Assembly (NCBI GenBank): GCA_026395175.1
Contig: JAPLZF010000009.1
Coordinates: 82,083-146,082, forward strand
DNA: 64,000 nucleotides
Source of the DNA: Candidatus Staskawiczbacteria bacterium
GTDB taxonomy: Bacteria; Patescibacteriota; Minisyncoccia; Minisyncoccales; Staskawiczbacteraceae
Reading direction: 5' to 3'
In this document: piece after piece, positions 417 to 60,345 of the stretch
How positions within the stretch are numbered: position 1 is the stretch's first letter
Layout of the letters: each line of letters starts with the position of its first letter
The notes under the pieces: model-generated
The model's database searches: none
Seen by the model: only the letters and a program-made list of their open reading frames with translations
Told to the model about the DNA's origin: nothing
Translations under genes and position numbers: made by a program

Positions 417-1055
417 TTACTTGCGGGGACGGCGGAAGACGAGCTGAGCGCCTGGACTCCAGAGATAGCCGGGATTAGCATAGTCGCTGCCGAGATACAC
501 GCCATCGCCCCCGTGCTCTACGCTGAACACGAGCAGGTCGCCGTACGAATCGAGAATGGGTTCAGAGCAAATTCTGAGCCATTCACCTTTGGGCTGATCC
601 TTGTACTGCCGACGCAGTTGCGGTCCGTCTTCCGTTCCGCACAACTCCAGTCCGAACCCGAGGGCTCGCTCGTAAATCCTGTCACGGCGAGTGGCTTCCG
701 TGAAGCCGAGTTCTGCGACGCTGGTTCGGACCAGGTCAACTTCCATTTCCGTGGCCGAGACGACGAAAGCATCCTTGTTAAGCATGTCGTCAGCCCAGTC
801 GCTGATATTCATACCGGCCTTCTTCATGGCTTCGCGGAAACCGTTGGCGTCCTTGAACCCGACACCGAGCTTGATGGTCCGCCAAACGGGAAACTCCCGT
901 GGCTCAATGAACATTCCTTCAACTGCCCGCTGGAGAAACTTATTCAGTCCCTCCGGATCATACGGATAGCCTCCGGGTTGCCTCATCTGCCGCTTGATCT
1001 CCGCTAACTTCCCATCAACATTGAAATACTGATCGCCAGTGAGTACAATACCCAT
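417..1055 (-). CDS. Hypothetical protein, member 1 of a GC-rich paralogous family (about 212 aa), C-terminal motif LLVFSVEHGGDGVYLGSDYANPGYLWSPGAQLV
   Basis: Long minus ORF in a visibly GC-rich segment. The internal ATG at 1055 is preceded by AAAGGAG-N7; the ORF-track start at 1121 lies inside the leader hairpin and is probably spurious. The antisense ORF 327-1007 has a low-complexity R/L/P composition. Confidence 0.55.
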   Translation of the reverse strand: MGIVLTGDQYFNVDGKLAEIKRQMRQPGGYPYDPEGLNKFLQRAVEGMFIEPREFPVWRTIKLGVGFKDANGFREAMKKAGMNISDWADDMLNKDAFVVSATEMEVDLVRTSVAELGFTEATRRDRIYERALGFGLELCGTEDGPQLRRQYKDQPKGEWLRICSEPILDSYGDLLVFSVEHGGDGVYLGSDYANPGYLWSPGAQLVFRRPRK

Positions 1056-1245
1056 GACAATCTCCTTTCTATTTTGCCCGCCGTTAGGACAGGCTGTTTG
1101 ACTGCCACTATTAGCAGTCATAGCCAGAAAACACCGAATAACATCAGTATCTTTTGGCTACGACTGCTAGTTTCGCAAGTATTTGATTATAAATGTACAA
1201 TCTTTACCAATTATTAATTATACACCCATAATGAGTCTTTGTCAA
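1056..1245 (-). promoter_or_regulatory. Conserved promoter-leader cassette L1: sigma70-like TTGACA (1240-1245, rc), 17 nt spacer, TATAAT (1217-1222, rc), then a roughly 130 nt 5' UTR with a long hairpin at 1113-1168
   Basis: The -35, 17 nt spacer and -10 are all consensus. The 14-bp stem agcagtcatagcca / tggctacgactgct can extend to about 20 bp. The same element recurs at 18945-19146 and 60205-60345. Confidence 0.6.
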
Positions 1246-6427: not shown

Positions 6428-6514
6428 AATGCTATTTTTTAATTTCTAATTTTGAATTTCGATTAAATTTTAAAATTCTAATTTCGAAATTCTGGTTTTA
6501 TTCGAAATTCGAAA
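6428..6514. repeat. Degenerate array of the GAAATTC/TTCGAAA heptamer repeat (family A) in the ftsA-ybeY intergenic region
   Basis: aatttctaattttgaatttcga ... ttcgaaattcgaaatt; it shares a roughly 25 nt core with the copy inside polX at 53899-53937. Confidence 0.6.
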
Positions 6515-6901
6515 TTAAAAATTCAAAATTTCTAAATACTTCTCTTCTTTCTCCTGCATTTTTATTTCTTCTGCTCTGCTTTTCTCGTGGTCATATCCGC
6601 ACAAGTGCAAAATGCCATGAACAAAAACTTCCATTATTTTTTCTTTCTTTTCTTTTACAACTTCCGGACAAATCACAATCTCGCCTAAATAATCTTTTTC
6701 GTTAAACAAAAAAGATAAAACGTCGGTAGGTTTATTTTTCCCGCGATATTTTTTATTAAGCTTTGCAATCTCGGCTTTTTCCACAAAAGCCAAAGATAGC
6801 GTTTCCGTTTCTCTATTTTCGCCTAATAAAACTTTTTTTGCAACCTGTGAAAAACTTTTCTTATCCACAGAAAACTTGGTGAGGTTATTTATCTCTATCA
6901 T
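6515..6901 (-). CDS. ybeY: rRNA maturation endoribonuclease YbeY
   Basis: HGILHLCGYDH metal-binding motif. Confidence 0.85.
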   Translation of the reverse strand: MIEINNLTKFSVDKKSFSQVAKKVLLGENRETETLSLAFVEKAEIAKLNKKYRGKNKPTDVLSFLFNEKDYLGEIVICPEVVKEKKEKIMEVFVHGILHLCGYDHEKSRAEEIKMQEKEEKYLEILNF

Positions 6902-6995: not shown

Positions 6996-7829
6996 TTACC
7001 CTTGCAAAACTTCGGCCATTGTAAAGATGTCTTTTTCAACTTTGTGTCTGGCGAGAAACCGAATCGCCCGCAACACGCCGTCCACATAGACGTTTCTGCC
7101 CAACACATTGTATGTGAATTGCAGTTTCACGGTGCCGTCCGGAGACATCATTGTGTAGGTATGATACGCGTGGCCACCAATATATTTCTTTGGAACGCCA
7201 AGCTTCACTTCTTGGACCACAGGGTCTCGCACCATGTTGTCTGCAATCTGTTCTTTTGTGTACGGCATTCCAAGCGCCGCGAAGAATTCCAGCAGGCTCA
7301 CCGCCGTCCCACTGGGGTCTTTTTTCCCAGCCTGGTGGCTTTCTTCAATGAGCAACTGCCAGCCTTCAAGCACATTCGGAAAATTCTTGGCAGCGTATTC
7401 CAACATCGCCTGAAACATCACAACTGGCGAGGCCATATTTGGAGCAATAACAGCCGAGACACAGGACTTCTTAACCGTTTCCTCCAGCTTTTGTCTGTCT
7501 CCGCCGGTTGTCCCCATAACAAAGGGAACTCCCGCTTGGCAATACAGCTCGGCATTGCGGTTGACCGCTTTCGGTTGTGTGAAATCAACAACCATGTCAA
7601 TATCTTTACGACTCCGTAAGAAGTCTGTATGTTCATCGGTTGGAATCAAACGCACTGCTTCCGGCGACCTCTCATCTGCGATGAGCGTAACTCCTTTCTC
7701 TTCGGAAAGCGCATAAGGATACAACTCCATGTCTTCCTGAGACACAATGGCTTCCGCGACAAGCCTGGCCATTTTCCCCATTTCTTGTTGTGCTGACAAT
7801 CCTGCTACCATCGCCATAATCTTTTTCAT
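6996..7829 (-). CDS. dapB: Dihydrodipicolinate reductase (DapB)-like oxidoreductase, visibly GC-richer than its neighbours
   Basis: ESHQAGKKDPSGTA matches the DapB E-HH-K-D-PSGTA signature. Its own promoter TTGACA-16-TAGTAT lies about 100 nt upstream. Confidence 0.6.
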   Translation of the reverse strand: MKKIMAMVAGLSAQQEMGKMARLVAEAIVSQEDMELYPYALSEEKGVTLIADERSPEAVRLIPTDEHTDFLRSRKDIDMVVDFTQPKAVNRNAELYCQAGVPFVMGTTGGDRQKLEETVKKSCVSAVIAPNMASPVVMFQAMLEYAAKNFPNVLEGWQLLIEESHQAGKKDPSGTAVSLLEFFAALGMPYTKEQIADNMVRDPVVQEVKLGVPKKYIGGHAYHTYTMMSPDGTVKLQFTYNVLGRNVYVDGVLRAIRFLARHKVEKDIFTMAEVLQG

Positions 7830-16496: not shown

Positions 16497-16564
16497 AAAT
16501 TTGTTTTATTTTATCACACTTTTTAGGCAATTACAACCCCTTTATAAATAGTCCAAATATAGAA

Positions 16565-16598
16565 AAAAAGTCGGGCTCCAGCATGTGCTAGAGCCCCT
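16565..16598 (-). terminator. Intrinsic terminator (GGGCTC-loop-GAGCCC then a T-run on the minus strand)
   Basis: Hairpin plus TTTTTTT seen in the minus-sense sequence. Confidence 0.5.
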
Positions 16599-16627
16599 CA
16601 AACTTGAAACAGGTACAACAAATGCAA

Positions 16628-16897
16628 CTACCGCCGCAAGCGCAGGGACTGCTTCCTGCACTTGGGCTTATGATGCCCATTGCCATTGCCGTTTTTGCCG
16701 TTGCCGGGGGATTGATCCCTAAAAACCTGCAGGAGCAACTTCCGCATTCCCTTCCGTCCGATGTGTTCCCCGCCATAGCGAGCGTTGAAGATTCTCGCCA
16801 GTTTTGCGATGGCGTCAGAATGCGCATTCGGGGGAACTTGAAATTTCCGTAGAAACCGTACTTGGTCCTCTGGCAACTGCATTGTCGCGTTAAGCAT
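16628..16897 (-). CDS. Hypothetical small basic protein in a GC-rich island (MLNATMQLPEDQVRFLRKF...); gene model uncertain
   Basis: This frame stops about 30 nt before the terminator. The alternative overlapping frame 16588-16968 is Cys-rich and stops inside the terminator hairpin. Confidence 0.3.
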   Translation of the reverse strand: MLNATMQLPEDQVRFLRKFQVPPNAHSDAIAKLARIFNARYGGEHIGRKGMRKLLLQVFRDQSPGNGKNGNGNGHHKPKCRKQSLRLRR

Positions 16898-17061
16898 ACT
16901 CTTTTCCCTCTTCGTTTTTGTTGTGTTTTCCCTGTTTCTACAAACAAAATTGGAAATGAGCTGACCATTCAACCGCCTTTCTCTCGGTTCTTGAATGGGT
17001 TGTTGACAACTAATATCATAGCTCTTTCATAAATTGATGTCAAATGCTATAATTACAAAAT

Positions 17062-17625
17062 ATGATAATTATTATTGGCCTGGGAAATCCGGGCAAACAA
17101 TATAAAAATACCCGCCACAATGTTGGATTTATGGCAGTTGACAGCTTTGCAGAGAAAAATAATTTCCCGGAGTTTAAGTTAAACAAAAAATTTAATTCTT
17201 TAGTTTCAGAAGGAATTATTGAAGAAGAAAAAATATTGCTCGCCAAACCTCAAACGTTTATGAATAACAGCGGTTCTGCAGTAAAATCCTTAATTCGAAA
17301 TTCGAAATTCGAAATTAGAAATTCTATCGTCGTGGTACACGACGATATAGATCTTCCTGTTGGAAAAATCAAAATCGTGCAAGAACGCGGTTCTGCCGGC
17401 CACAAAGGCGTTGAGTCAATAATTAAAAGCATTGGCAACAACGGCTTAGTAAGATTTCGCATAGGAATTGCAGGCAATAAAAAAACCGACGCCATGAAAG
17501 TTGTCTTAAAAAACTTTTCAGCAGAAGAGAAAAAAACATTGGATGAAACGATAGAAAAAATAACAGAAGCTTTAGACATGTTTATAAAAGAGGGTTTAGA
17601 AAAAACAATGAACAAATTTAATTAA
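17062..17625 (+). CDS. pth: Peptidyl-tRNA hydrolase
   Basis: MIIIIGLGNPGKQY...HNVGF motifs. It carries an in-frame heptamer-repeat insert encoding RNSKFEIRNS. Confidence 0.85.
   Translation: MIIIIGLGNPGKQYKNTRHNVGFMAVDSFAEKNNFPEFKLNKKFNSLVSEGIIEEEKILLAKPQTFMNNSGSAVKSLIRNSKFEIRNSIVVVHDDIDLPVGKIKIVQERGSAGHKGVESIIKSIGNNGLVRFRIGIAGNKKTDAMKVVLKNFSAEEKKTLDETIEKITEALDMFIKEGLEKTMNKFN
17291..17325 (+). repeat. (TTCGAAA)n heptamer tandem repeat (family A), in frame inside pth
   Basis: ttcgaaattcgaaattcgaaattagaaattc. Confidence 0.7.
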
Positions 17626-17841: not shown

Positions 17842-17949
17842 TTAGCTGGAGATCACCTGGTTGCCGGCATTCCATTCGTTCGGATTCTCAACAGAGTTGG
17901 CGTTCACGTTCCAATAGCGATTGTCAGAGTTCCAGTTCGCGTTCACAGC
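17842..17949 (-). pseudogene. 3' fragment paralogous to the C-terminus of gene 18282-18944 (AVNANWNSDNRYWNVNANSVENPNEWNAGNQVISS*)
   Basis: About 85% DNA identity to 18295-18405. An in-frame TAA lies immediately upstream, so only about 35 codons are intact. Confidence 0.5.
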
Positions 17950-18281
17950 CCAGACCGATTATATGCAACACGCCATCACAACCACTGTCCTTTGAATACT
18001 CTTGGGACTGTATCTTATTTGGGACATAAAAGTCCTCCAGCGCGCTACACCGATTCTTTTCTTTTTTAGAAACTTGCATAATGACGCTTGTTGAAGACTT
18101 GTCCGCAACAATTCTGCAATATACAATTTCAAGGCGCTACGCAAAAGCCTTAACCTCCACGTTCAGCTATCCTTAGATTTATTTTACATTTTTTTGTGAA
18201 AATAAAAAGACTCTCCTTTACTTTTCAAAGTTTCAGAGAGCCATAGATTCTGAGAGTCCAAAGTCCCGAAGGGCTTTAGAG

Positions 18282-18944
18282 TCAAGAATCGCAAGAGAGG
18301 ACCTGGCTGCCAGCAAACCACACGTCCGGATTCTCAACAGAGTAGGCGTGCACGCTCCAATAGCGATTGACAGAGTTCCAGTTCGCGATCACAGCCCAGA
18401 CATTGCCGTCTTTTCCTGAGATATGCATGACGTTCGCACGCCCATTAACGAGCAATTTGCCCTCTTCTCCATGTGCCTGTTTTTTAATCAGGCAAAATAG
18501 GTAAGCGAGGTAAGCTCTGGCAAGATCGCCTAACTCAGCGATGATTTGTGGGTCTTTGGAGTCCAACTCCAACCGATGAATCGCGAGCGTGGCGTCAGGA
18601 ACGTTTTCTTCCACAAGATTGAGGAATTGTTCCTTGAAGACGTCGTTAGTCCAACCGACGTTAGCTTCTGCGAGATGGTCTTTGGCGATAAACTTCTTCG
18701 CGCCATCGACCGACGCCGTCGCAATCTTCATGAGAATACCGCCAACACGCCCACCTTTGGCCAGAAACTGAAGGAAACGTCCAAAGAAATCATCCTGGCT
18801 GTCGTTCACGATTTGTTGAGCAGTGGCACAGGATACGTCCCAATCCATCTTCCCTGTTACCACCTCAACACTCATCTTGATGAATGCCTTGAAAAGCATC
18901 ATCAAAATTTCTCCCAATTGCTCAACACTCATCCTGTCCTTCAT
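18282..18944 (-). CDS. Hypothetical protein, member 2 of the GC-rich paralogous family (C-terminal ...NRYWSVHAYSVENPDVWFAGSQVL)
   Basis: GC-rich ORF with the conserved promoter-leader upstream. Its C-terminal motif NP..W..G.QVL and internal AELG segment are shared with gene 417-1055. Start uncertain (MKDR or MSVEQ); the track start uses TTG. Confidence 0.55.
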   Translation of the reverse strand: MKDRMSVEQLGEILMMLFKAFIKMSVEVVTGKMDWDVSCATAQQIVNDSQDDFFGRFLQFLAKGGRVGGILMKIATASVDGAKKFIAKDHLAEANVGWTNDVFKEQFLNLVEENVPDATLAIHRLELDSKDPQIIAELGDLARAYLAYLFCLIKKQAHGEEGKLLVNGRANVMHISGKDGNVWAVIANWNSVNRYWSVHAYSVENPDVWFAGSQVLSCDS

Positions 18945-19146
18945 TGTATGAACCTTTTTTGCGGCTACTGTTGCTCTCGCCACAAGGCAGAGCAAGCTCA
19001 ACGCATACTGTGGCAACCCTTTGCCACACCAGAAAATTATCTGTTTCTCAAATCTCTTTCTGGCATGGCAAAAACAAGTATTTTTAAATTATAAATGTGC
19101 CAATTTACTATTTATTAATTATACACCCTCTATCAATTATTGTCAA
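18945..19146 (-). promoter_or_regulatory. Conserved promoter-leader cassette L3: perfect TTGACA (19141-19146, rc), 17 nt, TATAAT (19118-19123, rc), plus the leader hairpin (about 19021-19073)
   Basis: caagtatttttaaattataaatgtgccaatttactatttattaattatacaccc aligns to 1170-1235. The hairpin sequence differs from L1 but pairing is preserved. Confidence 0.6.
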
Positions 19147-25025: not shown

Positions 25026-25109
25026 GCCGAGGTGGTGAAATTGGCAAACACGCCGGACTCAAAATCCGGTGCCCTTAAAAGCTTGAGGGTTCAAGTCCCT
25101 CCCTCGGCA
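25026..25109 (+). tRNA. tRNA-Leu (anticodon CAA), long variable arm, CCA not encoded
   Basis: Acceptor stem GCCGAGG/CCTCGGC, anticodon loop CTCAAAA, T arm GAGGGTTCAAGTCCCTC. Confidence 0.8.
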
Positions 25110-28294: not shown

Positions 28295-29939
28295 GTTTTT
28301 CTGCTGTTTGTTTTTTTAATAATAGAGCGCAGATTTTTTTGCAAACAATCAAAGAAATTTCTTCTTTTTCTAAAAATTCTTTAACAACGTCTTCCAGTTC
28401 TTTTTGATTTATCGGGTCTAAAACTTTTATGTTTTTTACTCCGCAAGCCTTTGCAATTTCTTCAATTGAAAGTTCTGGGGCTTCTTCTCCCATCAAATTT
28501 TTTCCCATCCCGGGATTTGGCTGGTGCCCGGTCATTGCTGTAATTCTGTTATCCATTACAATCATCAAAGGGTTTGATTTGTTGTAAACAGCATTAACCA
28601 TTCCTGCAATTCCGGAATGAAAAAATGTGCCATCCCCCATAAAAGATATAACCTTTCGGCTTCGCTCAGGGCCTTCGGCCTTTAAAATGCCGTGGGCAAC
28701 ACCTATAGACGCGCCCATGCAAAACAAATAATCATACATTGAATGAGGAGGCAAAGCTCCAATCATGTTGCACCCAATATCTCCACCAAAAATTGTGCCT
28801 TCCGGGGCAATTCTTTTTATGGTTGGTAAAATATACCAATATGGGCAACCCTCACAAAGCCTTGCTGTTCTCTTTGGCAAATTCAAATTCTTTGTTTTAA
28901 ATTCGGCAAATTTCATTCCCACTACTTTTGACAAAGCGCCACAAACTTTTTCAGCGCTCAATTCTCCAATAATTGGCAAAACATTTTTGCCAAAAATTTC
29001 CATTTTTGCGTTTGCGTCTTTTGCCAACACAGCAATTTCTTTTTCAACATATCCTTCCAACTCCTCAACAACTAAAACTTTTTTTAATGGTTTTATAAAC
29101 TTTATAATTTTTTCTTTTGGTAAAGGATAAAAAGATCCAAGTTGCAAAACCGGCAAATCCAATTTCAATTCTTCCAAAGCCTCCATAACATGCAAACCTG
29201 CAACTCCCGAAGCTATTATTCCAACCTTCAAATTGTAGGACTTCGGGAGTCCTACAATTTTGTTGATTTTAGACTTTTCTGCATATGCCTGTATTTTTTT
29301 TATTTTTTCCAAAAGCTCTTTTTTCATTTCCAAGGTTCTTGGTGGCATTGTAGAATACTGATGCGGATTTTTGACGAAGTCACCCCGCGGAGTTTCAACG
29401 GAGTGGGGCTCATCCACCTCAACAACTGCCCGCTGGTGCGCGCATCTTGTAACAGTTCGTAAAATTACCGGCATATTAAATTTTTCAGAAATTTCAAAAC
29501 CAATTTTTGTAAAGTCGTAGCATTCCTGCGGATCTGCGGGCTCTAACATTGGAATATGGCCCAAATAAGCATACATTCTGGAATTTTGCTCAGATTGAGC
29601 CGAACTCCAGCAGGAAGGGTCGTCTGCCACCACAATCACCATTCCGCCTTTTGTGCCGGTGTAGGCCAATGGCAACAAAACGTCCGAGCACACATTAATT
29701 CCAAAGCTCTTCATATTCACCAAAACTTTCAAACCGGAAAAACTTGCTCCAATGGCAGATTCCAAAGCTGTTTTTTCGTTTGTAGCGTACTCTGCATAAA
29801 CCCCGTTTTCTTTGGCAATCTTGCCAAATTCGTCTCCAATTTCAGCCGATGGGCATCCGGGATATCCGGTAACATAAGAAACGCCCGATGCCAACGCCGC
29901 CCTAACTATTGCCTCATTCCCCAATAAAATTTTCTTCAT
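28284..29939 (-). CDS. iorA: Indolepyruvate:ferredoxin oxidoreductase alpha subunit (TPP-dependent)
   Basis: TPP-binding and CEGCPYW Fe-S motifs. Carries an in-frame 31-nt palindromic insert. Confidence 0.75.
   Translation of the reverse strand: MKKILLGNEAIVRAALASGVSYVTGYPGCPSAEIGDEFGKIAKENGVYAEYATNEKTALESAIGASFSGLKVLVNMKSFGINVCSDVLLPLAYTGTKGGMVIVVADDPSCWSSAQSEQNSRMYAYLGHIPMLEPADPQECYDFTKIGFEISEKFNMPVILRTVTRCAHQRAVVEVDEPHSVETPRGDFVKNPHQYSTMPPRTLEMKKELLEKIKKIQAYAEKSKINKIVGLPKSYNLKVGIIASGVAGLHVMEALEELKLDLPVLQLGSFYPLPKEKIIKFIKPLKKVLVVEELEGYVEKEIAVLAKDANAKMEIFGKNVLPIIGELSAEKVCGALSKVVGMKFAEFKTKNLNLPKRTARLCEGCPYWYILPTIKRIAPEGTIFGGDIGCNMIGALPPHSMYDYLFCMGASIGVAHGILKAEGPERSRKVISFMGDGTFFHSGIAGMVNAVYNKSNPLMIVMDNRITAMTGHQPNPGMGKNLMGEEAPELSIEEIAKACGVKNIKVLDPINQKELEDVVKEFLEKEEISLIVCKKICALLLKKQTAEKHDQ
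29230..29260. repeat. 31-nt palindromic element (family B), in frame inside iorA and encoding KIVGLPKSYNL
   Basis: aaattgtaggacttcgggagtcctacaattt, identical to 49235-49266. Confidence 0.7.
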
Positions 29940-33915: not shown

Positions 33916-33943
33916 CAGTCAACACAACTAAGGGAGGTAACAC

Positions 33944-34153
33944 ATGAAAGCGAACGAAGCTGTTGACGCCTTGAAAAAAGGCACTGGACTGGTCGCTTTT
34001 CGACCAAGCTGGGAAAAGGGCGAGTATCTATTTGTTACGGGAGGAAACGGAAGTGCGTGGGACGTCCACGATACGTTCAAAAAACCTCGTACACAAAAGC
34101 AAATGCTCGCCGACGCAGAGGCCAATGACTGGAGGGTTCAACTACTTGTATAA
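33944..34153 (+). CDS. DUF2829-like small protein (Tad2-like fold family), GC-rich self-contained module
   Basis: EAVDALKKGTGLVAFRPSW...YLFV...SAW...MLADAEANDWRV fits the DUF2829 pattern; strong RBS. Confidence 0.55.
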   Translation: MKANEAVDALKKGTGLVAFRPSWEKGEYLFVTGGNGSAWDVHDTFKKPRTQKQMLADAEANDWRVQLLV

Positions 34154-34204
34154 TGGAGCCCCCTCCCAAACAGAACCGCCGAGGTTTCGACCCGGCGGTG
34201 AACA

Positions 34205-34237
34205 AAGCGCGAGACTTCGGTCCCGCGCTGTTTTATT
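34205..34237 (+). terminator. Intrinsic terminator (agcgcgagacttcggtcccgcgct then gttttattg)
   Basis: GC hairpin plus T-run, preceded by a second hairpin ccgccg...cggcgg. Confidence 0.6.
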
Positions 34238-34345
34238 GCACATTTAACTGCCATCACATTTCCAGCGATAGCATAAAATCTGACACCACCTATTTTACAT
34301 ACTTTTTAAAAATATTTCGGGTTAATGAGTATTAACCTGCGCGAA

Positions 34346-35182: not shown

Positions 35183-36672
35183 TTTTTGTTTTCTAGTCTC
35201 GGAAATAAAATTTCTGACCTGCCCTGAGCGGAGTCGAAGGGTTTTTCAACTACTTTTTTTATTTTTTCTGAAGTTTGTGGCAAAAATGGTTCCAGCAAAA
35301 TTCCAATTTCTTTTATAGCAAAAAATAAGTCATTAATAACTTCCATTTTTTTTGCCTGCCCAGAGCTGGTCGAAGGGGTTTCCCAAAGTTTTTCTTCATT
35401 TATATATTTGTCGCAAAAACTTATTATTTCCCAAACAGAAATTAAAGCTTCGTTAAATTTAAAACTTTCAATGGCTAATTTATAATTTTTTTGCGTTTTT
35501 TCAATTTGTTTTTTTAATTCTAAATTTGAAAATTTATTCGAAATTCGAAATTCAAAATTCGAAATTTTGTCTGATATTCCCAATGTTCTTGCTACCAGAT
35601 TGCCAATACCGCCGGCTAAATCGGCGTTGTATCTTTGCTCAAATTTTTCGTATGTAAAATCACCATCCTCTGCAGAGACGATTTCTCTTAACAAATAATA
35701 TCTAACTGCATCAACTCCATATTTGTTTACCAGCTCAAAAGGGTCAACTACATTTCCCAAAGATTTTGACATTTTTTGCCCGCCAACATTTATAAATCCA
35801 TGAACAAAAATCTTTTTAGGGAGAGCAAGCTTAGCCGACAAAAGCATTGCTGGCCAAAATATGGTATGAAACTTCATTATATCTTTGCCTAAACAATGAA
35901 CGTCTGCTGGCCAATATTTTTTGAATTGCTCTGTTTCATTGTCATATCCAATAGCCGAAATATAATTTGGCAAAGCGTCGCACCAAACATACATTACCTG
36001 TTCTGGGTCTCCCGGAACTTCAAACCCCCAATATTTATCTTTTGTTCTGGAAAAGCTTACATCTTCCATACCTTGCTTCAACATTGATAAAGTTTCATTC
36101 TTTCTAGACTCGGGAATAATTTCTATTTCGCCACTCCTAATTTTTTCTTCCACTTCTTTAGTATATTTTGAAAGCCTAAAAAAATAATTTTCTTCTTCAA
36201 CAAATTCCAGCTCTTTCAAATGTATAGGACACTTGCCATCAACTATTTCTTTTTCTGTTTTAAATGCCTCGCATCCTGGGCAATAATAACCTTTATATTT
36301 TTTCTTATAAATATCGCCTGCTTCATCTAATTTTTTCCAAAGCTTTTCTACTGCTGGCTTGTGCTTTGTTTCATCTGTGGTTCTTATAAAGTCATTATTT
36401 GATATATTTAAAATTTTTGTCAGCTCTCTAAATTTGCCAGAAATTCCATCGGCAAAATCTTTTGGGTCACGGCCCGCTTCTCTCGCCACCCTTAAGGTTT
36501 TAATGCCGTGTTCATCTGTGCCGGTCAGGAAAAAAACATCTTCACCTAAACACTTATGATATCTTGCCAAAACATCTGCCTGAATTGCCTCCAACGCAAA
36601 GCCAATGTGCGGAGGCGCATTTGTGTAGGGAATGCTGGTGGTGATATAGAATTTTTTGTTTTTATTTGTCAT
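35179..36672 (-). CDS. metG: Methionyl-tRNA synthetase
   Basis: PYTNAPPHIGH and KMSKS motifs. Start moved to MTNKNKK. Carries in-frame repeat inserts from families A and C. Confidence 0.85.
   Translation of the reverse strand: MTNKNKKFYITTSIPYTNAPPHIGFALEAIQADVLARYHKCLGEDVFFLTGTDEHGIKTLRVAREAGRDPKDFADGISGKFRELTKILNISNNDFIRTTDETKHKPAVEKLWKKLDEAGDIYKKKYKGYYCPGCEAFKTEKEIVDGKCPIHLKELEFVEEENYFFRLSKYTKEVEEKIRSGEIEIIPESRKNETLSMLKQGMEDVSFSRTKDKYWGFEVPGDPEQVMYVWCDALPNYISAIGYDNETEQFKKYWPADVHCLGKDIMKFHTIFWPAMLLSAKLALPKKIFVHGFINVGGQKMSKSLGNVVDPFELVNKYGVDAVRYYLLREIVSAEDGDFTYEKFEQRYNADLAGGIGNLVARTLGISDKISNFEFRISNKFSNLELKKQIEKTQKNYKLAIESFKFNEALISVWEIISFCDKYINEEKLWETPSTSSGQAKKMEVINDLFFAIKEIGILLEPFLPQTSEKIKKVVEKPFDSAQGRSEILFPRLENKK
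35222..35241 (+). repeat. Repeat family C copy in the metG C-terminus (KPFDSAQGRS)
   Basis: ccctgagcggagtcgaaggg. Confidence 0.6.
35359..35377 (+). repeat. Repeat family C copy in metG (PSTSSGQ)
   Basis: cccagagctggtcgaaggg. Confidence 0.6.
35523..35568. repeat. Heptamer repeat family A array, in frame in metG (ISNFEFRISNKFSN)
   Basis: aatttgaaaatttattcgaaattcgaaattcaaaattcgaaatttt. Confidence 0.65.
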
Positions 36673-48258: not shown

Positions 48259-49825
48259 TTCTTTTTAGTTCTTTAGGGGTTGATATTCCCATTAATTTCA
48301 GCGCATTCTCCAAAACAATTTTTGTTGCCAATATTAAAGACAAGCGGGCTTCTGTTAATTTTTTATCTTCAGTAACAACTCTGCATTTTTCATAAAACTT
48401 ATGGAATGAATCTGCCAGTTCAATTGCATAATTTGGCAGACGTTGCAGTTGATAATCATTTGCGCTGTCTCCAATAATTTCCGGAAATCTTATTAATTGT
48501 TTTATCAATTCTAATTCACTTTGCTCTTTCAACAAATCCAAATTATTTGTTTTTGCTTTAATTTTAGATTTTGCAAAAATGCTGTTTATTCTGGCATAAG
48601 CATATTGCACTTTAAAAACCGGGTTTTTGTCTGACTTTTCTTTTGCCAAGTCCATATCAAAATTAAAATGCGTGTTTAAAGACCTTTGCAAAAAGAAAAA
48701 ACGCGCAACATCCAGGCCAACCTCGTCAATTAATTCGTCAATGGTTACATAAATTCCTGTTCTTTTAGACATGCGCACTTCTTTGCCGTTTTCAAAAAGC
48801 TTTACCAATTGCAAAACAATTGCATCAACATTTTCTTTGTTATAACCCAACGCTTGGCAAGCAGCTTTCAACCTTGCCACATAGCCGTAATGGTCTGCTC
48901 CTAAAAATATTATTAATTTGTCAAAGCCTCGCTCAAATTTATTTCTTAAATAGGCAATGTCTGAGGCAAAATAGGTTTTAACCCCATCCTCTCTTATCAA
49001 AACCCTGTCTTTGTCGTCTCCTAGTTCAGATGATTTAAACCACAAAGCGCCTTCGCTTTCGTAAGCAAAACCCTTTTTTGTGAGTTCTGCGATTGTTTTG
49101 TCCACTACGCCATTTTTATACAAAGTTGTTTCAGAAAACCAGGTATCAAATTTAATGCCCATCCTTTTCACAGACGGCTTTATCATTTTTTCTAAAATTA
49201 TCTTTCCTGCCTTTTCACCAATTTCTTCAGCTTTAAAATTGTAGGACTTCGGGAGTCCTACAATTTCTTTTCTTAAATCCTCAATATACTTTCCGGAATA
49301 AACCGCTTCTTCGTCTCCAATTACTGAATGTCCCAGCTTTGTAATTTGAGCGCCAATATCATTTATGTAATATTCTCTTGAAACTTTATATCCGGCTTTT
49401 TCTAAAACCTTTGCCAAAACATCTCCACCAAATCCGCCTCTTCCATTGCCCAGTGTCAAAGGCCCCGTGGGATTTGCAGAAATAAACTCCACATTTATTT
49501 TTTGTTTTTTCCCAATATTTGAGCTCCCAAATTTTTCCTTTCCTTTTAAAACTTTCTGCACCTGCTCTTTTAAATATTTTTCTGAAAGATAAAAATTAAT
49601 AAACCCATTTACAACTTCTATTTTAGAAAATAATTTATTTTTTTGTTTTTCTATTTCTGTTTTTATCAGCTCTGCCGTTTCGCGAGGATTTTTATTTTCT
49701 TTTTTCGCCAAAATCAACGCAACGTTGCTTGAATAATCTGCATGGCTTGAAGTTTCAACAGAAAAGTTCAGGACTTCTCCTTTAATAACTTTCTCAATTA
49801 TTTTTTTGATTTCTTCTTTTATCAT
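48245..49825 (-). CDS. argS: Arginyl-tRNA synthetase
   Basis: Class I HIGH-like SANPTGPLTLG motif and DALR anticodon-binding domain. Carries the in-frame 31-nt palindrome. Confidence 0.85.
   Translation of the reverse strand: MIKEEIKKIIEKVIKGEVLNFSVETSSHADYSSNVALILAKKENKNPRETAELIKTEIEKQKNKLFSKIEVVNGFINFYLSEKYLKEQVQKVLKGKEKFGSSNIGKKQKINVEFISANPTGPLTLGNGRGGFGGDVLAKVLEKAGYKVSREYYINDIGAQITKLGHSVIGDEEAVYSGKYIEDLRKEIVGLPKSYNFKAEEIGEKAGKIILEKMIKPSVKRMGIKFDTWFSETTLYKNGVVDKTIAELTKKGFAYESEGALWFKSSELGDDKDRVLIREDGVKTYFASDIAYLRNKFERGFDKLIIFLGADHYGYVARLKAACQALGYNKENVDAIVLQLVKLFENGKEVRMSKRTGIYVTIDELIDEVGLDVARFFFLQRSLNTHFNFDMDLAKEKSDKNPVFKVQYAYARINSIFAKSKIKAKTNNLDLLKEQSELELIKQLIRFPEIIGDSANDYQLQRLPNYAIELADSFHKFYEKCRVVTEDKKLTEARLSLILATKIVLENALKLMGISTPKELKRNEAK
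49235..49266. repeat. 31-nt palindromic element (family B), in frame in argS and encoding EIVGLPKSYNF
   Basis: aaaattgtaggacttcgggagtcctacaattt. Confidence 0.7.
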
Positions 49826-51034: not shown

Positions 51035-51481
51035 ATGAAGATATTCAGTGAAAACAAAAAGGCGGGGTTTAACTATGAAATCCTAGAGAAGTTTGAAGCC
51101 GGGATGGTTTTGTTTGGCCAGGAAGTTAAATCAATAAAAACCGGGCACATCAATTTGTCCGGGTCTTATGTTGTTTTTAACAGGTCAGAGCCCTATTTAA
51201 CCGGCGTAAAAGTGCCTCCATACCAGCCAAACAACATTGGAGCCGACTATAATGAAGAAAGGCAAAGAAAACTTCTTTTAAACAAAAAAGAGATAGATTA
51301 TTTGGCGGGCAAGACCAAAACCAAGGGTTTTAGCTTAATACCCTTGAAAATTTATGAGAACAATGGTAGAATAAAACTCGAATTCGGGTTAGCCCGCGGA
51401 AAGAAGAAATTCGACAAAAAGGAGAAAATTAAAAAACGGGATGTCGACCGAGAGGTTAATCGCGAATTATCACGGGGATGA
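51035..51481 (+). CDS. smpB: SsrA-binding protein
   Basis: GFNYEILEKFEAGMVL..EVKS SmpB signature. Confidence 0.85.
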   Translation: MKIFSENKKAGFNYEILEKFEAGMVLFGQEVKSIKTGHINLSGSYVVFNRSEPYLTGVKVPPYQPNNIGADYNEERQRKLLLNKKEIDYLAGKTKTKGFSLIPLKIYENNGRIKLEFGLARGKKKFDKKEKIKKRDVDREVNRELSRG

Positions 51482-51827
51482 TTGTTTCGATGACTAGTTC
51501 TTTAAAACAAGGCAAGTTAAGCTTTCTCAGGGCTTATAAATCTTCTGGGAAAAAACATAATTGCTACTAATTTATTTAATAGACAACCAGCATTAGCTTT
51601 CGCTTAATGCGGCATCTCAACCATTGACTCCTAATAAATGGACCTGAGGTGTTATATTATTAGGATAGGAATTCTGAGTCCTTGGCAGATTTCCAAAATA
51701 AAAAGGATAAGATGTTAAAAATTTTGCTATTTCTTTATTTGACATCCTAAAAAACAGAACTAGCTAAACTTGTAGAATTGCTTTAGAAAACTTTTCAGAC
51801 GCGATTTCAACATCGCCATCTCCACCA
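51474..51827 (+). ncRNA. ssrA: tmRNA (SsrA); its 5' GGGGATG pairs with 3' CATCTCC-A-CCA; predicted tag ATNLFNRQPALAFA
   Basis: tRNA-like 3' end GACGCGATTTCAACATCGCCATCTCCACCA and 5' GGGGATGATTGTTTCGATGAC resemble E. coli tmRNA; the candidate tag reading frame ends in TAA; sits downstream of smpB. Confidence 0.75.
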
Positions 51828-53408: not shown

Positions 53409-55132
53409 TACTTAAAATACTTTAATAATTTTTCTACTGAATTCGTGTTTATAATATCTTCTTTCTCGGACCAGCCTCTTCGTGCTTGCGCAATTCCATA
53501 TTCCATAAAATTTAATTGCTCTTTTTGGTGAGCGTCTGTGTTTATTATCATTTTTATTCCGGCCTCTTTTGCTCTTCTAATGTAAAAACCATTCAAATCA
53601 AGCCTTTCCGGGGCAGAGTCAATTTCCAAAATTGTTCCTGTTTTTTTGGCAACTTCCAAAATTTTATCAAAGTCCATTTGGTACTCATCTCTTTTCCCAA
53701 TCAGTCTTCCTGTTGGATGCCCAAATATATCAACATTTTTATTTTGCATTGCTTTTACTATTCTTTGGGTCATTTCTTTCTTTTCCATTTTCATATTTGA
53801 ATGCACGCTGGCAATTGCATAATCCAGTTTTTCTAAAACTTCATCTTTAATATCAAGACTGCCATCTGCCATTATATTAACTTCACATCCATGCAATATG
53901 CGAAATTTCGAATTTCTAATTTTGAATTTCGAATTTAATTGTTCTATTTTTTTATTCTGGGCTAAAAGTTGTTTTTCGTTTAAGCCATGCGTTATTCCTA
54001 AAGATTTCGTATGGTCTGAAATGCCAACATATTCATATCCCATATTTATTGCCGCTTTAACCATTTCTTCAATTGAATTCTCTCCATCGGAAGCTGTTGT
54101 GTGGCAGTGCAAGTCACCTTTAATATCTTTATATCCTATTATTTTTGGCAATTCATTTTTTAAACCAGCCTCAATTTCTCCTTCATTTTCGCGAAGCTCG
54201 GGCTCAATATACGGAAGCCCAATTGCCTTATAAACGCCTTCTTCTGTCTCGCCTGCAATCTGCTTTTTCCCTTTAAATATTCCATATTCAGAAAGCTTTA
54301 AACCTTTTGAAATAGCAATTTTCCTTGTAATAATGTTATGGTCTTTGTTGCCGGTAAAATATTGCAAAGCAGACCCATAGCTTTCTTTTTTTACAACTCT
54401 CAAATCCATATCAAATCCTTCTCTTATCCTAACCGAAGCTTTTGTTCCGCCCTTGCCCCAAACTTTTTCTACTCCGTCCAACTTCACAAAAAAATCCATA
54501 ACTTTGGCAGGATTTTTAGAAACAACTAGAATGTCCACGTCCCCAATTGTTTCTTTTCTTCTTCTTACAGATCCCGCCAAGCTAATCTGGTCAACTTCTT
54601 CCAAGCTTTTTAATTTTTCCAAAACATTTCTGGCAGTAGGCAAAATTTGCCCAATTGGAAACCTGCCTTTATCTCTTTTTAAAAATTCCAAACCCTGCAA
54701 AATATTTTTTTCTGTTTTTTCTCCAAAACCAAATAGGGGAGCCACTTTGTGGGCATTAGCAACTTTTTCCAAATCCTTTAAATTTTTAACTCCCAATTTT
54801 TGATATAATATTTTTGCCTTTTTCACTCCCATCCCTTCAACCCTAACCAGCTCATCCAATTTCAACGGTAATTTTTTCTTAAAATCTTCATAATGTTTTA
54901 TTTTTCCAGTTTTTAAATATTCTTCTATGTGGTCAGCAATTGCTTTGCCAACTCCGGGAATTTCCAGCAAAGCTTTAACTCCTCCTTTTTTATAAATGTC
55001 GCCCACGTCCTCGCTCAGGCCTTCTAAAGACAAAGCTGCCCTTTGGTACGCATAGGGCTTAAAAGCCACGCCGTCGGCTTCCAAAAATCTTGCCATATCA
55101 TTGAAAACTTTAGCCAATTCCTGATTTCTCAT
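53408..55132 (-). CDS. polX: DNA polymerase X family protein with a C-terminal PHP domain
   Basis: N-terminal HhH/pol-beta-like domain, nucleotidyltransferase GDVD region, PHP histidines. Carries an in-frame heptamer-repeat insert. Confidence 0.8.
   Translation of the reverse strand: MRNQELAKVFNDMARFLEADGVAFKPYAYQRAALSLEGLSEDVGDIYKKGGVKALLEIPGVGKAIADHIEEYLKTGKIKHYEDFKKKLPLKLDELVRVEGMGVKKAKILYQKLGVKNLKDLEKVANAHKVAPLFGFGEKTEKNILQGLEFLKRDKGRFPIGQILPTARNVLEKLKSLEEVDQISLAGSVRRRKETIGDVDILVVSKNPAKVMDFFVKLDGVEKVWGKGGTKASVRIREGFDMDLRVVKKESYGSALQYFTGNKDHNIITRKIAISKGLKLSEYGIFKGKKQIAGETEEGVYKAIGLPYIEPELRENEGEIEAGLKNELPKIIGYKDIKGDLHCHTTASDGENSIEEMVKAAINMGYEYVGISDHTKSLGITHGLNEKQLLAQNKKIEQLNSKFKIRNSKFRILHGCEVNIMADGSLDIKDEVLEKLDYAIASVHSNMKMEKKEMTQRIVKAMQNKNVDIFGHPTGRLIGKRDEYQMDFDKILEVAKKTGTILEIDSAPERLDLNGFYIRRAKEAGIKMIINTDAHQKEQLNFMEYGIAQARRGWSEKEDIINTNSVEKLLKYFK
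53899..53937. repeat. Heptamer repeat family A, in frame in polX (NSKFKIRNSKFRI)
   Basis: gaaatttcgaatttctaattttgaatttcgaattt, nearly identical to the core at 6440-6465. Confidence 0.7.
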
Positions 55133-57623: not shown

Positions 57624-57877
57624 AAAATTTGCTGCAGAGCAACAAAAAACACCAGCTTTACAGCTGATGGACTTTGTTGGAGGGGGATAATAATTCCTAA
57701 CAAAAATGGATTATTTCTCGAGATAAATTCGGACAATGAATTTATGTATAATACTTATACCCTCTTCGTTAAAAACTATTATGTCCTTGAGGATAAACCT
57801 CGCACCCCCTCATAATAATTATTTTATTCTATTTTAAGCCGATGTCAAATTTTTATTCACTTTTTATCTGCAAGGGC

Positions 57878-57906
57878 TTGACACAATTTTTAGTTGGGAC
57901 TATGCT
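57878..57906 (+). promoter_or_regulatory. Sigma70-like promoter (TTGACA-17-TATGCT) driving a GC-rich orphan transcript
   Basis: Consensus -35, 17 nt spacer, near-consensus -10. Confidence 0.55.
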
Positions 57907-57912
57907 TAAATA

Positions 57913-58412
57913 ACCTAGTGTTCTTCGCGCTTCGCCACAGAAGAGGAAGTAGTACAATACACTACACACGACAAACAACACGATCAACCTGGCGAAAGGA
58001 GGGCCAATAAGCAAGACCCACGAACACTCTTCTGATGAAGAGGCCGAAGACACGATGAGGTGTAGTATAGCCACCATTGTTGTGGCACGCGACGAAGTCG
58101 GAAGACGACAAGGCAAGGAGAACTTCCATGATGCACCGGACAATGATGAAGCGAATCGTCGGCCTGACGATCGCAACGGCCGAAGTAGTGCGCGGTGTCG
58201 AGAGCAACATCGGCGTAACGGCCGGCTAGGTCCAAGTTGCTGTGACCTTGATGGTTGTGTGGCTGGGCTGCCCGCGGGCGAAATTGCTTGCTTCGGCGAG
58301 CGATATCCGGTGGGCAGCCCGCTCACAACAACAGTTCTTTGACATCAACCAGTCCTATCGCATGATAGGACATAACCCAGGAGCAACAACACACACGTTG
58401 CTCAATTTTTTT
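57913..58412 (+). ncRNA. Candidate structured ncRNA or small-ORF transcript (about 500 nt, GC-rich), delimited by a promoter and a rho-independent terminator; no convincing ORF
   Basis: All three minus frames are open (GC artefact). The plus ORFs are low-complexity. Strong internal hairpin gggctgcccgc...gggcagccc. Terminator gagcaac-loop-gttgctc then ttttttt. Confidence 0.4.
58381..58412 (+). terminator. Intrinsic terminator (gagcaacaacacacacgttgctcaattttttt)
   Basis: 7-bp stem plus T7. Confidence 0.65.
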
Positions 58413-58457
58413 ACAAAAAAACAAGCCTTTTAATAAGACTTGCTTTAAAATTTAAAT

Positions 58458-59682: not shown

Positions 59683-60204
59683 TCAGTAAAAGTACAGCGT
59701 CACAGAATCTATCTCAATTCCGTAACCATCCCCTCCACTGATGACCAAATAGAGGATACGGTCATCACCACCGCTCTCGACATTGGCCGGGCCGATTTTG
59801 AGGCTTTCAGAAAAAACATTCCAGCCGTTGCCCCCGCTACCGGTACTGCCGGCTGTGAACGAGCCGATAAACTCGGCCCCGACGGCGAGCGTCACCCGTT
59901 CGGATATAGGACTGCCATTATCGTTCGAATACCTGACGCTAACCCACAACTTGGTGGCGCCCGGCGGGACGGAGAAATTCTTATCAATTGACTCGCCGGC
60001 ACGCAGGTGAACCGTCCAATCGTTCTGGGCGTTGCCCCGTTGCTGTTTATAACCGTCTCCTTCAAACTTCTCCGCCGGGATTTGTACCTGTTTGAGCAAG
60101 GGACCGCTTAATAACGGCTGAAGCAGAGAACAGCCCGTCATTACCGGCGCTGTTAACAGCAGCGCCATTGCCAACACCATAAACCACCACTTCGATTTCT
60201 TCAT
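59683..60204 (-). CDS. Lipoprotein, member 3 of the GC-rich paralogous family (C-terminal LYLVISGGDGYGIEIDSVTLY)
   Basis: Signal peptide with a lipobox (VMTGC); RBS AGGAGGG; the conserved leader lies upstream; GGDG C-terminal motif shared with gene 417-1055. Confidence 0.6.
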   Translation of the reverse strand: MKKSKWWFMVLAMALLLTAPVMTGCSLLQPLLSGPLLKQVQIPAEKFEGDGYKQQRGNAQNDWTVHLRAGESIDKNFSVPPGATKLWVSVRYSNDNGSPISERVTLAVGAEFIGSFTAGSTGSGGNGWNVFSESLKIGPANVESGGDDRILYLVISGGDGYGIEIDSVTLYFY

Positions 60205-60345
60205 GACCTTTACCCTCCTGTGTTGCTTAAGCTGCTGCTATAGCAGTCATAGCCAGAAAACACCGACTAATAATATCAGTATCTTTTGGCTACAACTGCT
60301 AATTTCGCAAGTAATTTTTAAGTGTAAATGTGCTGATTTATCAAG
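60205..60345 (-). promoter_or_regulatory. Conserved leader L2 with hairpin (60242-60300); its upstream end overlaps the 3' end of the Mur ligase gene
   Basis: About 90% identity to 1110-1185 over roughly 75 nt; a C-to-T change keeps pairing as G-U. Confidence 0.55.

Follow-up and report, generated by a model that had tools for sequence, protein, structure and literature searches.

A GC-rich gene and its upstream region at positions 417–1245 (minus strand) were analyzed in a 64,000-nucleotide window, which is the whole stretch of DNA under study and part of a 178,960-bp contig from a metagenome-assembled genome (MAG) of Candidatus Staskawiczbacteria in the Patescibacteria, also called the candidate phyla radiation (CPR). 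The region, termed cassette 1, is interpreted with a probability of ~0.8 as the variable-protein gene of a chromosomal diversity-generating retroelement (DGR) of a Patescibacteria-specific clade together with its expression signals, among them a leader that would act after transcription. To our knowledge, DGRs are the sole system in nature known to carry out targeted protein hypermutation in prokaryotes. In these elements a reverse transcriptase (RT) and the protein Avd copy the RNA of a template repeat (TR) into adenine-mutagenized cDNA that replaces a variable repeat (VR) in the target gene and thereby alters the surface with which a small C-type-lectin-like domain binds its ligand. DGRs are particularly common in the ultra-small, host-dependent Patescibacteria. 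A preliminary description had grouped cassette 1 with two further GC-rich genes of the window, cassettes 2 and 3, as mobile or recombining paralogs behind a common promoter and leader. The VR/TR pairs with adenine mismatches, and the Avd and RT genes beside the first template repeat (TR1), identify cassettes 1 and 2 as DGR target genes; cassette 3 is an unrelated, predicted lipoprotein gene that probably acquired the same leader within the genome. The leader is a conserved structured RNA element in front of Patescibacterial DGR target genes. Overall, the element is of a known kind, a Patescibacterial DGR, with an apparently undescribed conserved leader RNA.

Adenine-specific repeats of cassettes 1 and 2

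Self-BLAST of the window aligned positions 3–44 with 517–558 at 85.7% identity, and on the coding (minus) strand the downstream copy has A where the in-gene copy has other bases. The downstream copy, TR1, continues past the window start onto an overlapping contig, L001, which was retrieved by exact look-up of the cassette 1 protein (NCBI NTY81_00765, an identical sequence from a MAG of Candidatus Staskawiczbacteria). On L001 the repeat measures 145 nt (VR 1284–1428, TR 1798–1942), with TR1 ~370 nt downstream of VR1. The two copies differ at 23 positions of which 20 are TR adenines (15 A>G, 3 A>T, 2 A>C; hypergeometric P = 3e-10), and the matching fraction is 0.97 at non-A positions vs 0.52 at A positions. 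When read in frame TR1 consists of Asn- and Asp-rich codons (ILNSNGNLNVFNVEHDDDDVYLNSNYANPDNLWNPDNQLVF), and VR1 is diversified at exactly those positions. The repeat terminates in an adenine-free GC-rich stretch, CTCGTCTTCCGCCGTCCCC. The inverted repeat beyond it occupies the position of the DGR hairpin or cruciform downstream of the initiation of mutagenic homing (IMH) sequence; these bases have other partners in the minimum-free-energy fold of the surrounding region. An Avd gene begins 30 nt after TR1 on the opposite strand (L001 1971–2300, minus) and its product scores 86.6 bits with NF033474 (DivGenRetAVD; cut-off 80) and 70.5 bits with PF22296 (bAvd; cut-off 40). It is followed by a gene for a 327-aa RT (L001 2343–3326) that matches RVT_1 with 85 bits and possesses the LGNLTSQ and YADD motifs, and for which no NCBIfam RT model reaches its cut-off. 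The modeled variable protein matches formylglycine-generating enzyme (FGE) and C-type-lectin folds, TvpA and Mtd among them.

Cassette 2 is accompanied by a second VR/TR pair (Table 1). VR2 ends 8 nt before the end of the coding sequence (CDS) at 18282–18944, and 13 of the 19 mismatches with TR2 are at TR adenines, several of the others being located at the repeat ends. The matching fraction is 0.93 at non-A positions vs 0.57 at A positions. A box of ~50 nt (AATAAnATACAG..AGAGTATTCAArGGrCAGTGG..GATGrCGT) is common to the regions upstream of TR1 and TR2, and folding predicts an inverted repeat with a 4-nt loop (18258–18279) that starts 2 nt after the cassette 2 stop codon. An adenine-tolerant scan of both strands of the window recovered exactly one VR per TR, and a DGR-type RT next to the TR was found for the first DGR only, on L001. 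We infer that cassette 2 is served in trans by the RT and Avd encoded beside TR1, ~17 kb away; an RT elsewhere in the genome is the other possible source. In a further locus (L024) two tandem target-plus-TR modules precede a single Avd gene which, together with the provision of a separate TR for each target here, suggests DGRs with multiple TRs and one RT.

Together these sequence signatures strongly back the proposed diversification mechanism, in which the RT and Avd encoded beside TR1 would produce adenine-mutagenized cDNA from the TR RNA and this cDNA would replace the VR in the last ~140 nt of the gene.

The coding bodies of the targets are distinguished further by composition. Cassette 1 was correctly described as a visibly GC-rich gene of ~212 codons: its GC content and its GC content at third codon positions (GC3; Table 1) compare with 36.5% GC for the window and with GC3 values of 0.27 (nrdG), 0.36 (nrdD) and 0.28 (a murE-like gene) for its neighbors. 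The contrast extends into the element itself, as GC3 is 0.65 in the target vs 0.22 in the Avd gene and 0.26 in the RT gene, both of which are AT-rich like the host. In 48 non-redundant DGR loci (among L008–L136) mean GC3 was 0.663 for the target vs 0.396 for the RT, and the target value was higher in 47 of them (Wilcoxon p = 1.4e-14). The portion of the target upstream of the VR is just as GC-rich (GC3 0.639), and both A and T are lowered on the coding strand, so that adenine depletion by mutagenesis is ruled out as the source of the bias. Simple recent horizontal transfer is an unlikely source because the RT and Avd genes next to the target are AT-rich. Candidate explanations are selection that acts on the stability or structure of the mRNA, and gene conversion between targets with a bias toward GC.

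A structured leader RNA upstream of the target genes

Cassette 1 is preceded by a perfect TTGACA-17-TATAAT promoter (12/12 in a promoter scan), the −35 hexamer of which overlaps the TGA stop codon (1244–1242) of nrdG (open reading frame [ORF] at 1242–1967), as the preliminary description had recognized, and by a leader of ~155 nt. The general layout of the leader comprises a 5′ box, a TACTTGC element and a hairpin of 22–26 bp. Self-BLAST confirmed that the upstream similarities within the window are significant: 1102–1196 aligned with 60232–60331 (85% over 101 nt, E = 1.6e-23) and 1176–1245 with 19075–19146 (76.7% over 73 nt, E = 3.7e-6). The supposition that the leader is nearly identical in front of all three genes is correct for cassettes 1 and 3 alone, whereas cassettes 1 and 2 have the promoter and 5′ box in common, the cassette 2 hairpin differs in sequence and cassette 3 lacks the shared promoter part. 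The cassette 2 hairpin has another stem sequence on the same architecture, with a G-C pair in place of an A.C mismatch, and was detected by a covariance model from whose training set it was absent. Each of the three leaders folds into a near-perfect hairpin of ~25 bp (z = −7.1, −4.75 and −5.4 for cassettes 1, 2 and 3, respectively). The covariance model scored the cassette 1 leader at 76.9 bits in the sense orientation vs 36.2 bits in antisense and found exactly three leaders in the window. No copy was detected by the model in the other GC-rich islands, namely a dapB-like gene (6996–7829) and the intervals 16526–16972, 33926–34300 and 57876–58425.

Leaders in other genomes were collected with the pattern TACTTG-N9-20-TAGCCAAAAG-N15-45-TTTCTRGCTA, which was scanned against one genome per GTDB species. 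Forty-seven loci were recovered of which 44 have Patescibacteria-type or unclassified bacterial titles (Saccharibacteria, Paceibacterota, Nomurabacteria, Nealsonbacteria, Staskawiczbacteria, Kerfeldbacteria, Minisyncoccales and unclassified bacteria) and three are short contigs binned as Gammaproteobacteria. In nearly all of these loci the motif is positioned 37–140 nt upstream of an ORF, mostly of ~160–260 aa, with a GC content that mostly is 0.44–0.62 and above the locus value of 0.31–0.51; the exception is L015 at 0.31. Approximately 20 loci display the full order of leader, target with VR, TR, Avd (reversed) and RT, and the mismatches in complete loci are adenine-specific (for example 22/22, 16/16 and 13/13). 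Most of the other proteins encoded behind the leader possess the same C-terminal VR-type domains. The two homologs of cassette 2 (L042 and L049) are preceded by the canonical leader. A homolog locus (L006) has the same TACTTGC..GTCGTAGCCAAAAG..TTTCTAGCTACGAC design, the cassette 1 homolog in L005 (3713–4000) has a different and shorter hairpin, and the one in L007 (3864–4000) retains just the 3′ arm and the second hairpin of the leader.

The helix is supported by covariation. RNAalifold predicted a 22-bp helix for the 47 leaders in which 13 of the 22 pairs show compensatory changes. Cells of this helix were paired in 96.4% of cases vs 33–47% when the partners were slid by 1–3 columns; 128 cells were doubly changed vs 33 in shuffles, and none of 500 shuffles attained any observed measure. 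One G-U pair is invariant and other G-U pairs are frequent, on the sense strand only. An AGYWCYTT box, which was not part of the search pattern, is located 4–13 nt upstream of TACTTG in 42 of 48 leaders compared to 8% of random 35-mers. TACTTG was fixed by the pattern, yet it also occurs in cassette 2 and in L006, L072 and L079, all of which were recovered independently. Alternatively, a second copy of the 5′ arm further downstream can pair with the 3′ arm of the main hairpin, and the free energy of this alternative pairing was −11.27 kcal/mol for native partners vs −8.82 kcal/mol for swapped partners (Mann-Whitney p = 1.3e-8). The block formed by the second small hairpin, the Shine-Dalgarno sequence and the ATG codon is conserved in L007.

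A second set of 80 metagenome loci was gathered by RT homology alone, 39 of which include sufficient upstream DNA. The canonical leader is present in 15 of the 39, on the RT strand and 1.5–1.65 kb upstream of the RT gene. At the corresponding position, visual inspection of five non-canonical loci revealed other long hairpins, in many cases still accompanied by the 5′ box and TACTTG. In 35 of the RT-anchored loci with an identifiable target ORF, the best 90-nt folding energy in the upstream 220 nt was −37.4 kcal/mol vs −24.7 kcal/mol for other ORFs of the same loci (p = 4e-10), and the median uninterrupted helix upstream of targets was 15 bp vs 10 bp (p = 1e-11). Thus, a long hairpin in the 5′ untranslated region (UTR) is a general property of targets in this DGR clade, and the TAGCCAAAAG-type leader is one widespread form of it.

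A scan with Rfam 15 at gathering thresholds returned only tmRNA and tRNA in the window and in 13 DGR loci, and the best match for positions 1000–1300 in an E-value scan reached 15.7 bits compared to a threshold of 49 bits. Thus, no curated retroelement-associated motif matches here. The features of the DGRs and leaders in the window are collected in Table 1.

Table 1. Positions of DGR and leader features in the 64,000-nucleotide window
Feature	Position	Strand	Description	Basis
TR1, first 44 nt	1–44	−	Remaining 101 nt, Avd and RT lie past window start	Self-BLAST
Box upstream of TR1	51–100	−	AATAATATACAG..AGAGTATTCAAGGGGCAGTGG..GATGACGT	Pairwise alignment of stop-to-TR regions of cassettes 1 and 2
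Inverted repeat	392–413	−	CAAGTTGCC-TCTG-GGCACTTGG; 4-nt loop; begins 4 nt past stop codon	Read from sequence
VR1	414–558	−	Last 142 nt of CDS and 3 nt past it, beyond stop codon	145-nt repeat with TR1 on L001
Cassette 1 gene	417–1055	−	DGR variable-protein (target) gene; 212 aa; GC 0.56, GC3 0.65	
Second small hairpin and start	1053–1094	−	GCCUGUC / GGCGGGC 1094–1076; Shine-Dalgarno AAGGAG 1067–1062; ATG 1055–1053	Fold, sequence
Alternative hairpin	1093–1124	−	Main hairpin 3′ arm (GCUAUGACUGCU) with downstream copy of 5′ arm (GGCAGUC..AGC)	Folding, 45 leaders
Main leader hairpin	1112–1169	−	~25 bp; core AUAGCCAAAAG / UUUCUGGCUAU with A.C mismatch and invariant G-U pair; covarying outer and apical stems	
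TACTTGC element	1175–1181	−	Single-stranded, directly 5′ of hairpin	Leader alignments
5′ box	1190–1198	−	GTACATTTA, local form of AGYWCYTT box	Sequence
Promoter 1	1217–1245	−	TTGACA 1245–1240, 17-nt spacer, TATAAT 1222–1217	Sigma-70-type consensus, promoter scan
TR2	17844–17957	−	AAC-codon-rich; next gene pth on other strand, 17062–17625	
Shared box before TR2	17971–18020			Alignment with TR1 upstream region
VR2	18290–18403	−	107-nt repeat, 86.9% identical, E = 1.4e-30 (18295–18401 vs 17849–17955)	Self-BLAST
Cassette 2 gene	18282–18944	−	Second DGR target gene; 220 aa; GC 0.49, GC3 0.58	ORF, composition
Cassette 2 leader	18993–19083	−	TACTTG 19080–19075, hairpin 19074–19018	Covariance model 21.2 bits, E = 0.0034
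Promoter 2 (cassette 2)	19118–19146	−	TTGACA 19146–19141, 17-nt spacer, TATAAT 19123–19118	Sequence
Cassette 3 gene	59683–60204	−	Predicted lipoprotein; 173 aa; GC 0.53, GC3 0.63	ORF
Cassette 3 leader	60216–60316	−	TACTTGC 60313–60307, hairpin 60301–60241	Self-BLAST; covariance model 77.2 bits; fold z = −5.4

Possible roles of the leader and of the GC-rich cassettes

Within the 5′ UTR the leader is an RNA-level element of the sense strand that is too helix-like for a typical ligand aptamer. Long 5′-UTR hairpins that are processed by RNase III or that stabilize transcripts are familiar from the phage lambda N leader, the T7 early mRNA leaders and the 5′ stabilizer stem-loops of Bacillus mRNAs. 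The leader resembles the RNase III-type hairpins in its (near-)perfect two-turn helix with one conserved internal mismatch, its location between promoter and ribosome-binding site, and its predicted potential to leave a new 5′-proximal hairpin after cleavage. It differs from these hairpins in that it is set back from the very 5′ end of the predicted transcript, and from simple stabilizers in its deeply conserved helix-core sequence and flanking TACTTGC element. In the preferred model the leader would act after transcription as a substrate of a protein or of RNase III, which is the weakest step. Cleavage or opening of the long helix would free the 3′ arm to refold with the downstream segment, and the resulting 5′-proximal hairpin would determine how stable the target mRNA is or how well it is translated.

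Several observations weigh against this interpretation of the region. The RNase III and refolding steps are conjectural, and neither a terminator nor a clear helix sequestering the Shine-Dalgarno sequence was seen in the cassette 1 leader. The apparent invariance of the leader core is partly circular because the core, like TACTTG, was fixed by the search pattern. The leader also precedes cassette 3 and genes in L008, L027 and L043 that encode signal-peptide- or transmembrane-like N-termini and near which no VR, TR or RT was detected, and thus it is not strictly DGR-specific. With respect to the RT that serves TR2, tblastn found no RT or Avd anywhere in the 64-kb window. With respect to current DGR activity, VR1 is the same in four metagenome contigs (L001–L004), an identity that is uninformative because all four were recruited by exact protein match; the 22–23 differences among them are located at a contig end and in nrdG. 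The 5′ box pairs weakly in the window cassettes, as described below.

A conformational switch, either riboswitch-like or protein-controlled, that gates translation is a less probable role for the leader. The choice between pairing of segments 1:2 and 2:3 would determine whether the ribosome-binding site is free, and the pyrimidine-rich 5′ box AGCUCUUU would act as an anti-Shine-Dalgarno sequence. The three-segment arrangement is shared with attenuator and riboswitch leaders, the two pairings are mutually exclusive and both are backed by sequence comparison, and the box is kept in 42 of 48 leaders. Across all leaders complementarity between box and Shine-Dalgarno sequence was −5.1 kcal/mol vs −3.9 kcal/mol for shuffled boxes (p = 7e-5), and several leaders hold the Shine-Dalgarno sequence within a GGCG...CGCC-AUG hairpin. 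In contrast, pairing between the box of the window cassettes (GYACAUUUA) and the Shine-Dalgarno region is weak (−1.9 and −2.5 kcal/mol). Moreover, a single long helix makes up most of the RNA and few unpaired nucleotides are conserved, unlike in known ligand-binding aptamers, and the gene context points to no ligand. The intrinsic terminator, multi-helix junction, conserved pocket, Rfam match and association with metabolic genes that typify attenuator and riboswitch leaders also are absent.

It is unlikely that the leader instead is a cis element of the retroelement, at which RT-Avd or a different DGR factor would bind the target transcript or gene and so mark targets or couple mutagenesis to expression. 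In favor of such a site, the leader accompanies RT-adjacent and stand-alone targets alike, and co-evolution with one trans factor would account for leaders that are near-identical within a genome (cassettes 1 and 3, L021 and L022, L046 and L054); the generality of long 5′ hairpins in this DGR clade is a further point in its favor. However, target recognition in known DGRs involves the IMH and the hairpin 3′ of the VR, not elements 600 nt upstream (Guo et al., 2011, PMC3240598; Wu et al., 2018, PMC5758913). The genes without a detected VR that are preceded by the leader (cassette 3, L008, L027 and L043) also are difficult to accommodate, and leader type follows RT phylogeny weakly: mean identity was 0.655 for canonical pairs (C-C), 0.651 for non-canonical pairs (N-N) and 0.640 for mixed pairs (C-N), with nearest-neighbor agreement of 24/37 vs ~19 expected.

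The mobile or recombining character that the preliminary description had ascribed to the cassettes stands only in part. The coding bodies are not ordinary core genes, and a conserved AT-rich promoter-leader module indeed is joined to divergent GC-rich bodies. The cassette 1 family also occupies different chromosomal sites: it follows nrdG here, rplE (within a cluster of ribosomal-protein genes) in L005, and a gene for RNase III in L007. In view of the VR/TR pairs, Avd and RT the recombining part corresponds to RT-mediated mutagenic retrohoming into the last ~140 nt and not to a shuffling of cassettes. It is improbable that the GC-rich genes and leaders are recently transferred mobile cassettes, integron-like or other, with the hairpin as a DNA recombination site. 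The GC contents of 0.49–0.56 vs 0.365 for the genome, the varied sites of cassette 1 homologs and the attachment of the leader to unrelated coding bodies are compatible with transfer. Against it, the Avd and RT genes of the same element are host-like in GC3, and the gap in GC3 between target and RT recurs in 47 of 48 loci with locus GC of ~0.31–0.51. On the opposite DNA strand, or in a cruciform, the many G-U pairs of the hairpin would become A.C mismatches; the hairpin is always downstream of the promoter, in one orientation and 37–140 nt before the ORF; and the flanks consist of housekeeping genes (nrdD, nrdG, hisS, lepB, pth, a mfd-like and a murE-like gene). An integron cassette with an attC site was rejected specifically, as the hairpin is 5′ of the ORF and downstream of a consensus promoter, its G-U pairs denote a one-strand RNA, and the three copies are 17–41 kb apart amid housekeeping genes; no systematic integrase search was made.

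The proposal that the three proteins form one GC-rich paralogous family with common C-terminal motifs is very improbable and is contradicted at the sequence level, as no significant pairwise similarity was detected among them (BLASTP E = 3.7, 0.41 and 0.74), tblastn divided the proteins encoded behind the leader in other genomes into 17 that match cassette 1 and two that match cassette 2 (L042 and L049) with none matching both, and the relatives of cassette 3 are CBM6-like proteins. None of the three has a Pfam or NCBIfam match. What survives is that the C-terminus of cassette 1 and that of cassette 2 are VR-encoded segments whose NP-x-W-x-G-x-Q-[LV] tails are similar: the motifs NPGYLWSPGAQLV / NPDVWFAGSQVL lie within these C-termini, which BLASTP did not align, whereas the likeness of LLVFSVEHGGDG / LVISGGDGYG to cassette 3 is at chance level.

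Cassette 3, related systems and other features of the window

The cassette 3 protein (NTY81_01080, encoded on the same contig as cassette 1) has a signal peptide and a Cys residue in a lipobox-like position and is predicted to be a lipoprotein. Thirteen homologs were found besides itself, four of which have a CBM_6 domain (PF03422), and the leader is absent at both homolog loci that were examined (L055 and L056). Neither TR1 nor TR2 has an adenine-tolerant match in cassette 3 on either strand of the window, and as the scan yielded just the two known VRs cassette 3 is not a target of TR1 or TR2. The 85% identity of the cassette 1 and 3 leaders fits recent copying within the genome or concerted evolution, a situation that recurs for L021/L022 and L046/L054.

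DGRs of the CPR have been described already (Wu et al., 2018, PMC5758913; clade 2 of Roux et al., 2021, PMC8144416). The element studied here shares with known DGRs, such as mtd/avd/TR/brt of Bordetella phage BPP-1, TvpA of Treponema and the CPR DGRs, the adenine-specific TR/VR differences, a VR at the 3′ end of the target ORF, Avd and an RT with LGxxxSQ and YADD motifs, a GC-rich adenine-free VR end followed by an inverted repeat (a putative IMH-like arrangement), and a predicted C-type-lectin-like variable domain; like the CPR DGRs it is chromosomal and in a Patescibacterium. Non-adjacent targets are known for DGRs. Cassette 2 is unlike known DGR targets in that it has a distinct TR of its own without an RT and does not share the RT-adjacent TR. 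The targets also are very small (~200 aa), lack signal peptides and are recoded to GC3 ~0.66 while RT and Avd keep host-like AT-rich codons. The conserved structured 5′ leader is a further difference and is unmentioned in the DGR papers searched. As a structured RNA at a retroelement locus it is comparable to the RT-1 to RT-19 motifs (Weinberg et al., 2017, PMC5737381) and to the TR/spacer RNA of DGRs, but it is situated ~1.5 kb upstream of the RT gene and before the target gene instead of beside the RT or TR. No description of the leader, the GC3 split or the stand-alone target-plus-TR modules was found in Rfam 15 or in the papers searched, and an earlier account may exist in Paul et al. (2017), the main paper on CPR DGRs.

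Target genes can be traced by the leader as a simple sequence tag, even where they are remote and missed by TR matching, and the leader is a candidate for a new class of cis-regulatory RNA in a lineage for which few RNAs have been described. If it is only a generic expression signal, the finding shrinks to one more Patescibacterial DGR. Tentatively, Patescibacterial DGRs might have a distinct architecture in which every target is marked by a leader, the leader is read by a factor linked to the DGR (RT-Avd, RNase III or a dedicated regulator) and the targets, unlike RT and Avd, are recoded to be GC-rich. In that event leader and recoding would couple the expression of hypervariable proteins to the mutagenesis machinery or insulate it from that machinery, and would amount to a new layer of DGR regulation as well as a new family of RNAs.

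Further features were noted in the window. The dapB-like gene at 6996–7829 (minus strand; DapB_N and DapB_C domains) has a GC content of 0.49 and no leader copy, and thus GC-rich islands are not all leader-linked. The island at 16526–16972 (minus strand; GC 0.50) is between pth and lepB, 900 nt downstream of TR2, and behind a TTGACA-17-TATGAT promoter-like site; it contains overlapping ORFs of 89–126 aa that are Gly/Asn-rich or Cys-rich, without a Pfam match or a leader copy. The island at 33926–34300 includes an ORF of 69 aa (33944–34153, plus strand) with a sub-threshold Tad2-like/DUF2829 match (E = 0.0013, 19.6 bits vs a cut-off of 25). The ~550-nt island at 57876–58425 (GC 0.51; probably minus strand) is located between two minus-strand genes and has no credible ORF; positions 57840–58450 fold on the minus strand with z = −4.76 and without an Rfam match at permissive thresholds, and a structured RNA that has escaped annotation may be encoded there. 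A 34-nt perfect palindromic hairpin, AAATTGTAGGACTTCGGGAGTCCTACAATTT, is present in two copies that are 97% identical (29227–29260 and 49233–49266) and possibly is a common terminator or a small repeat element. An AT-rich intergenic repeat family composed of TTCGAAATTCGAAATT units is found in both orientations at 6436–6535, 17290–17328, 35512–35571 and 53902–53948. The tmRNA (51474–51827, plus strand; 95.8 bits) and an 84-nt tRNA with a long variable arm (25026–25109, plus strand) both are ordinary.

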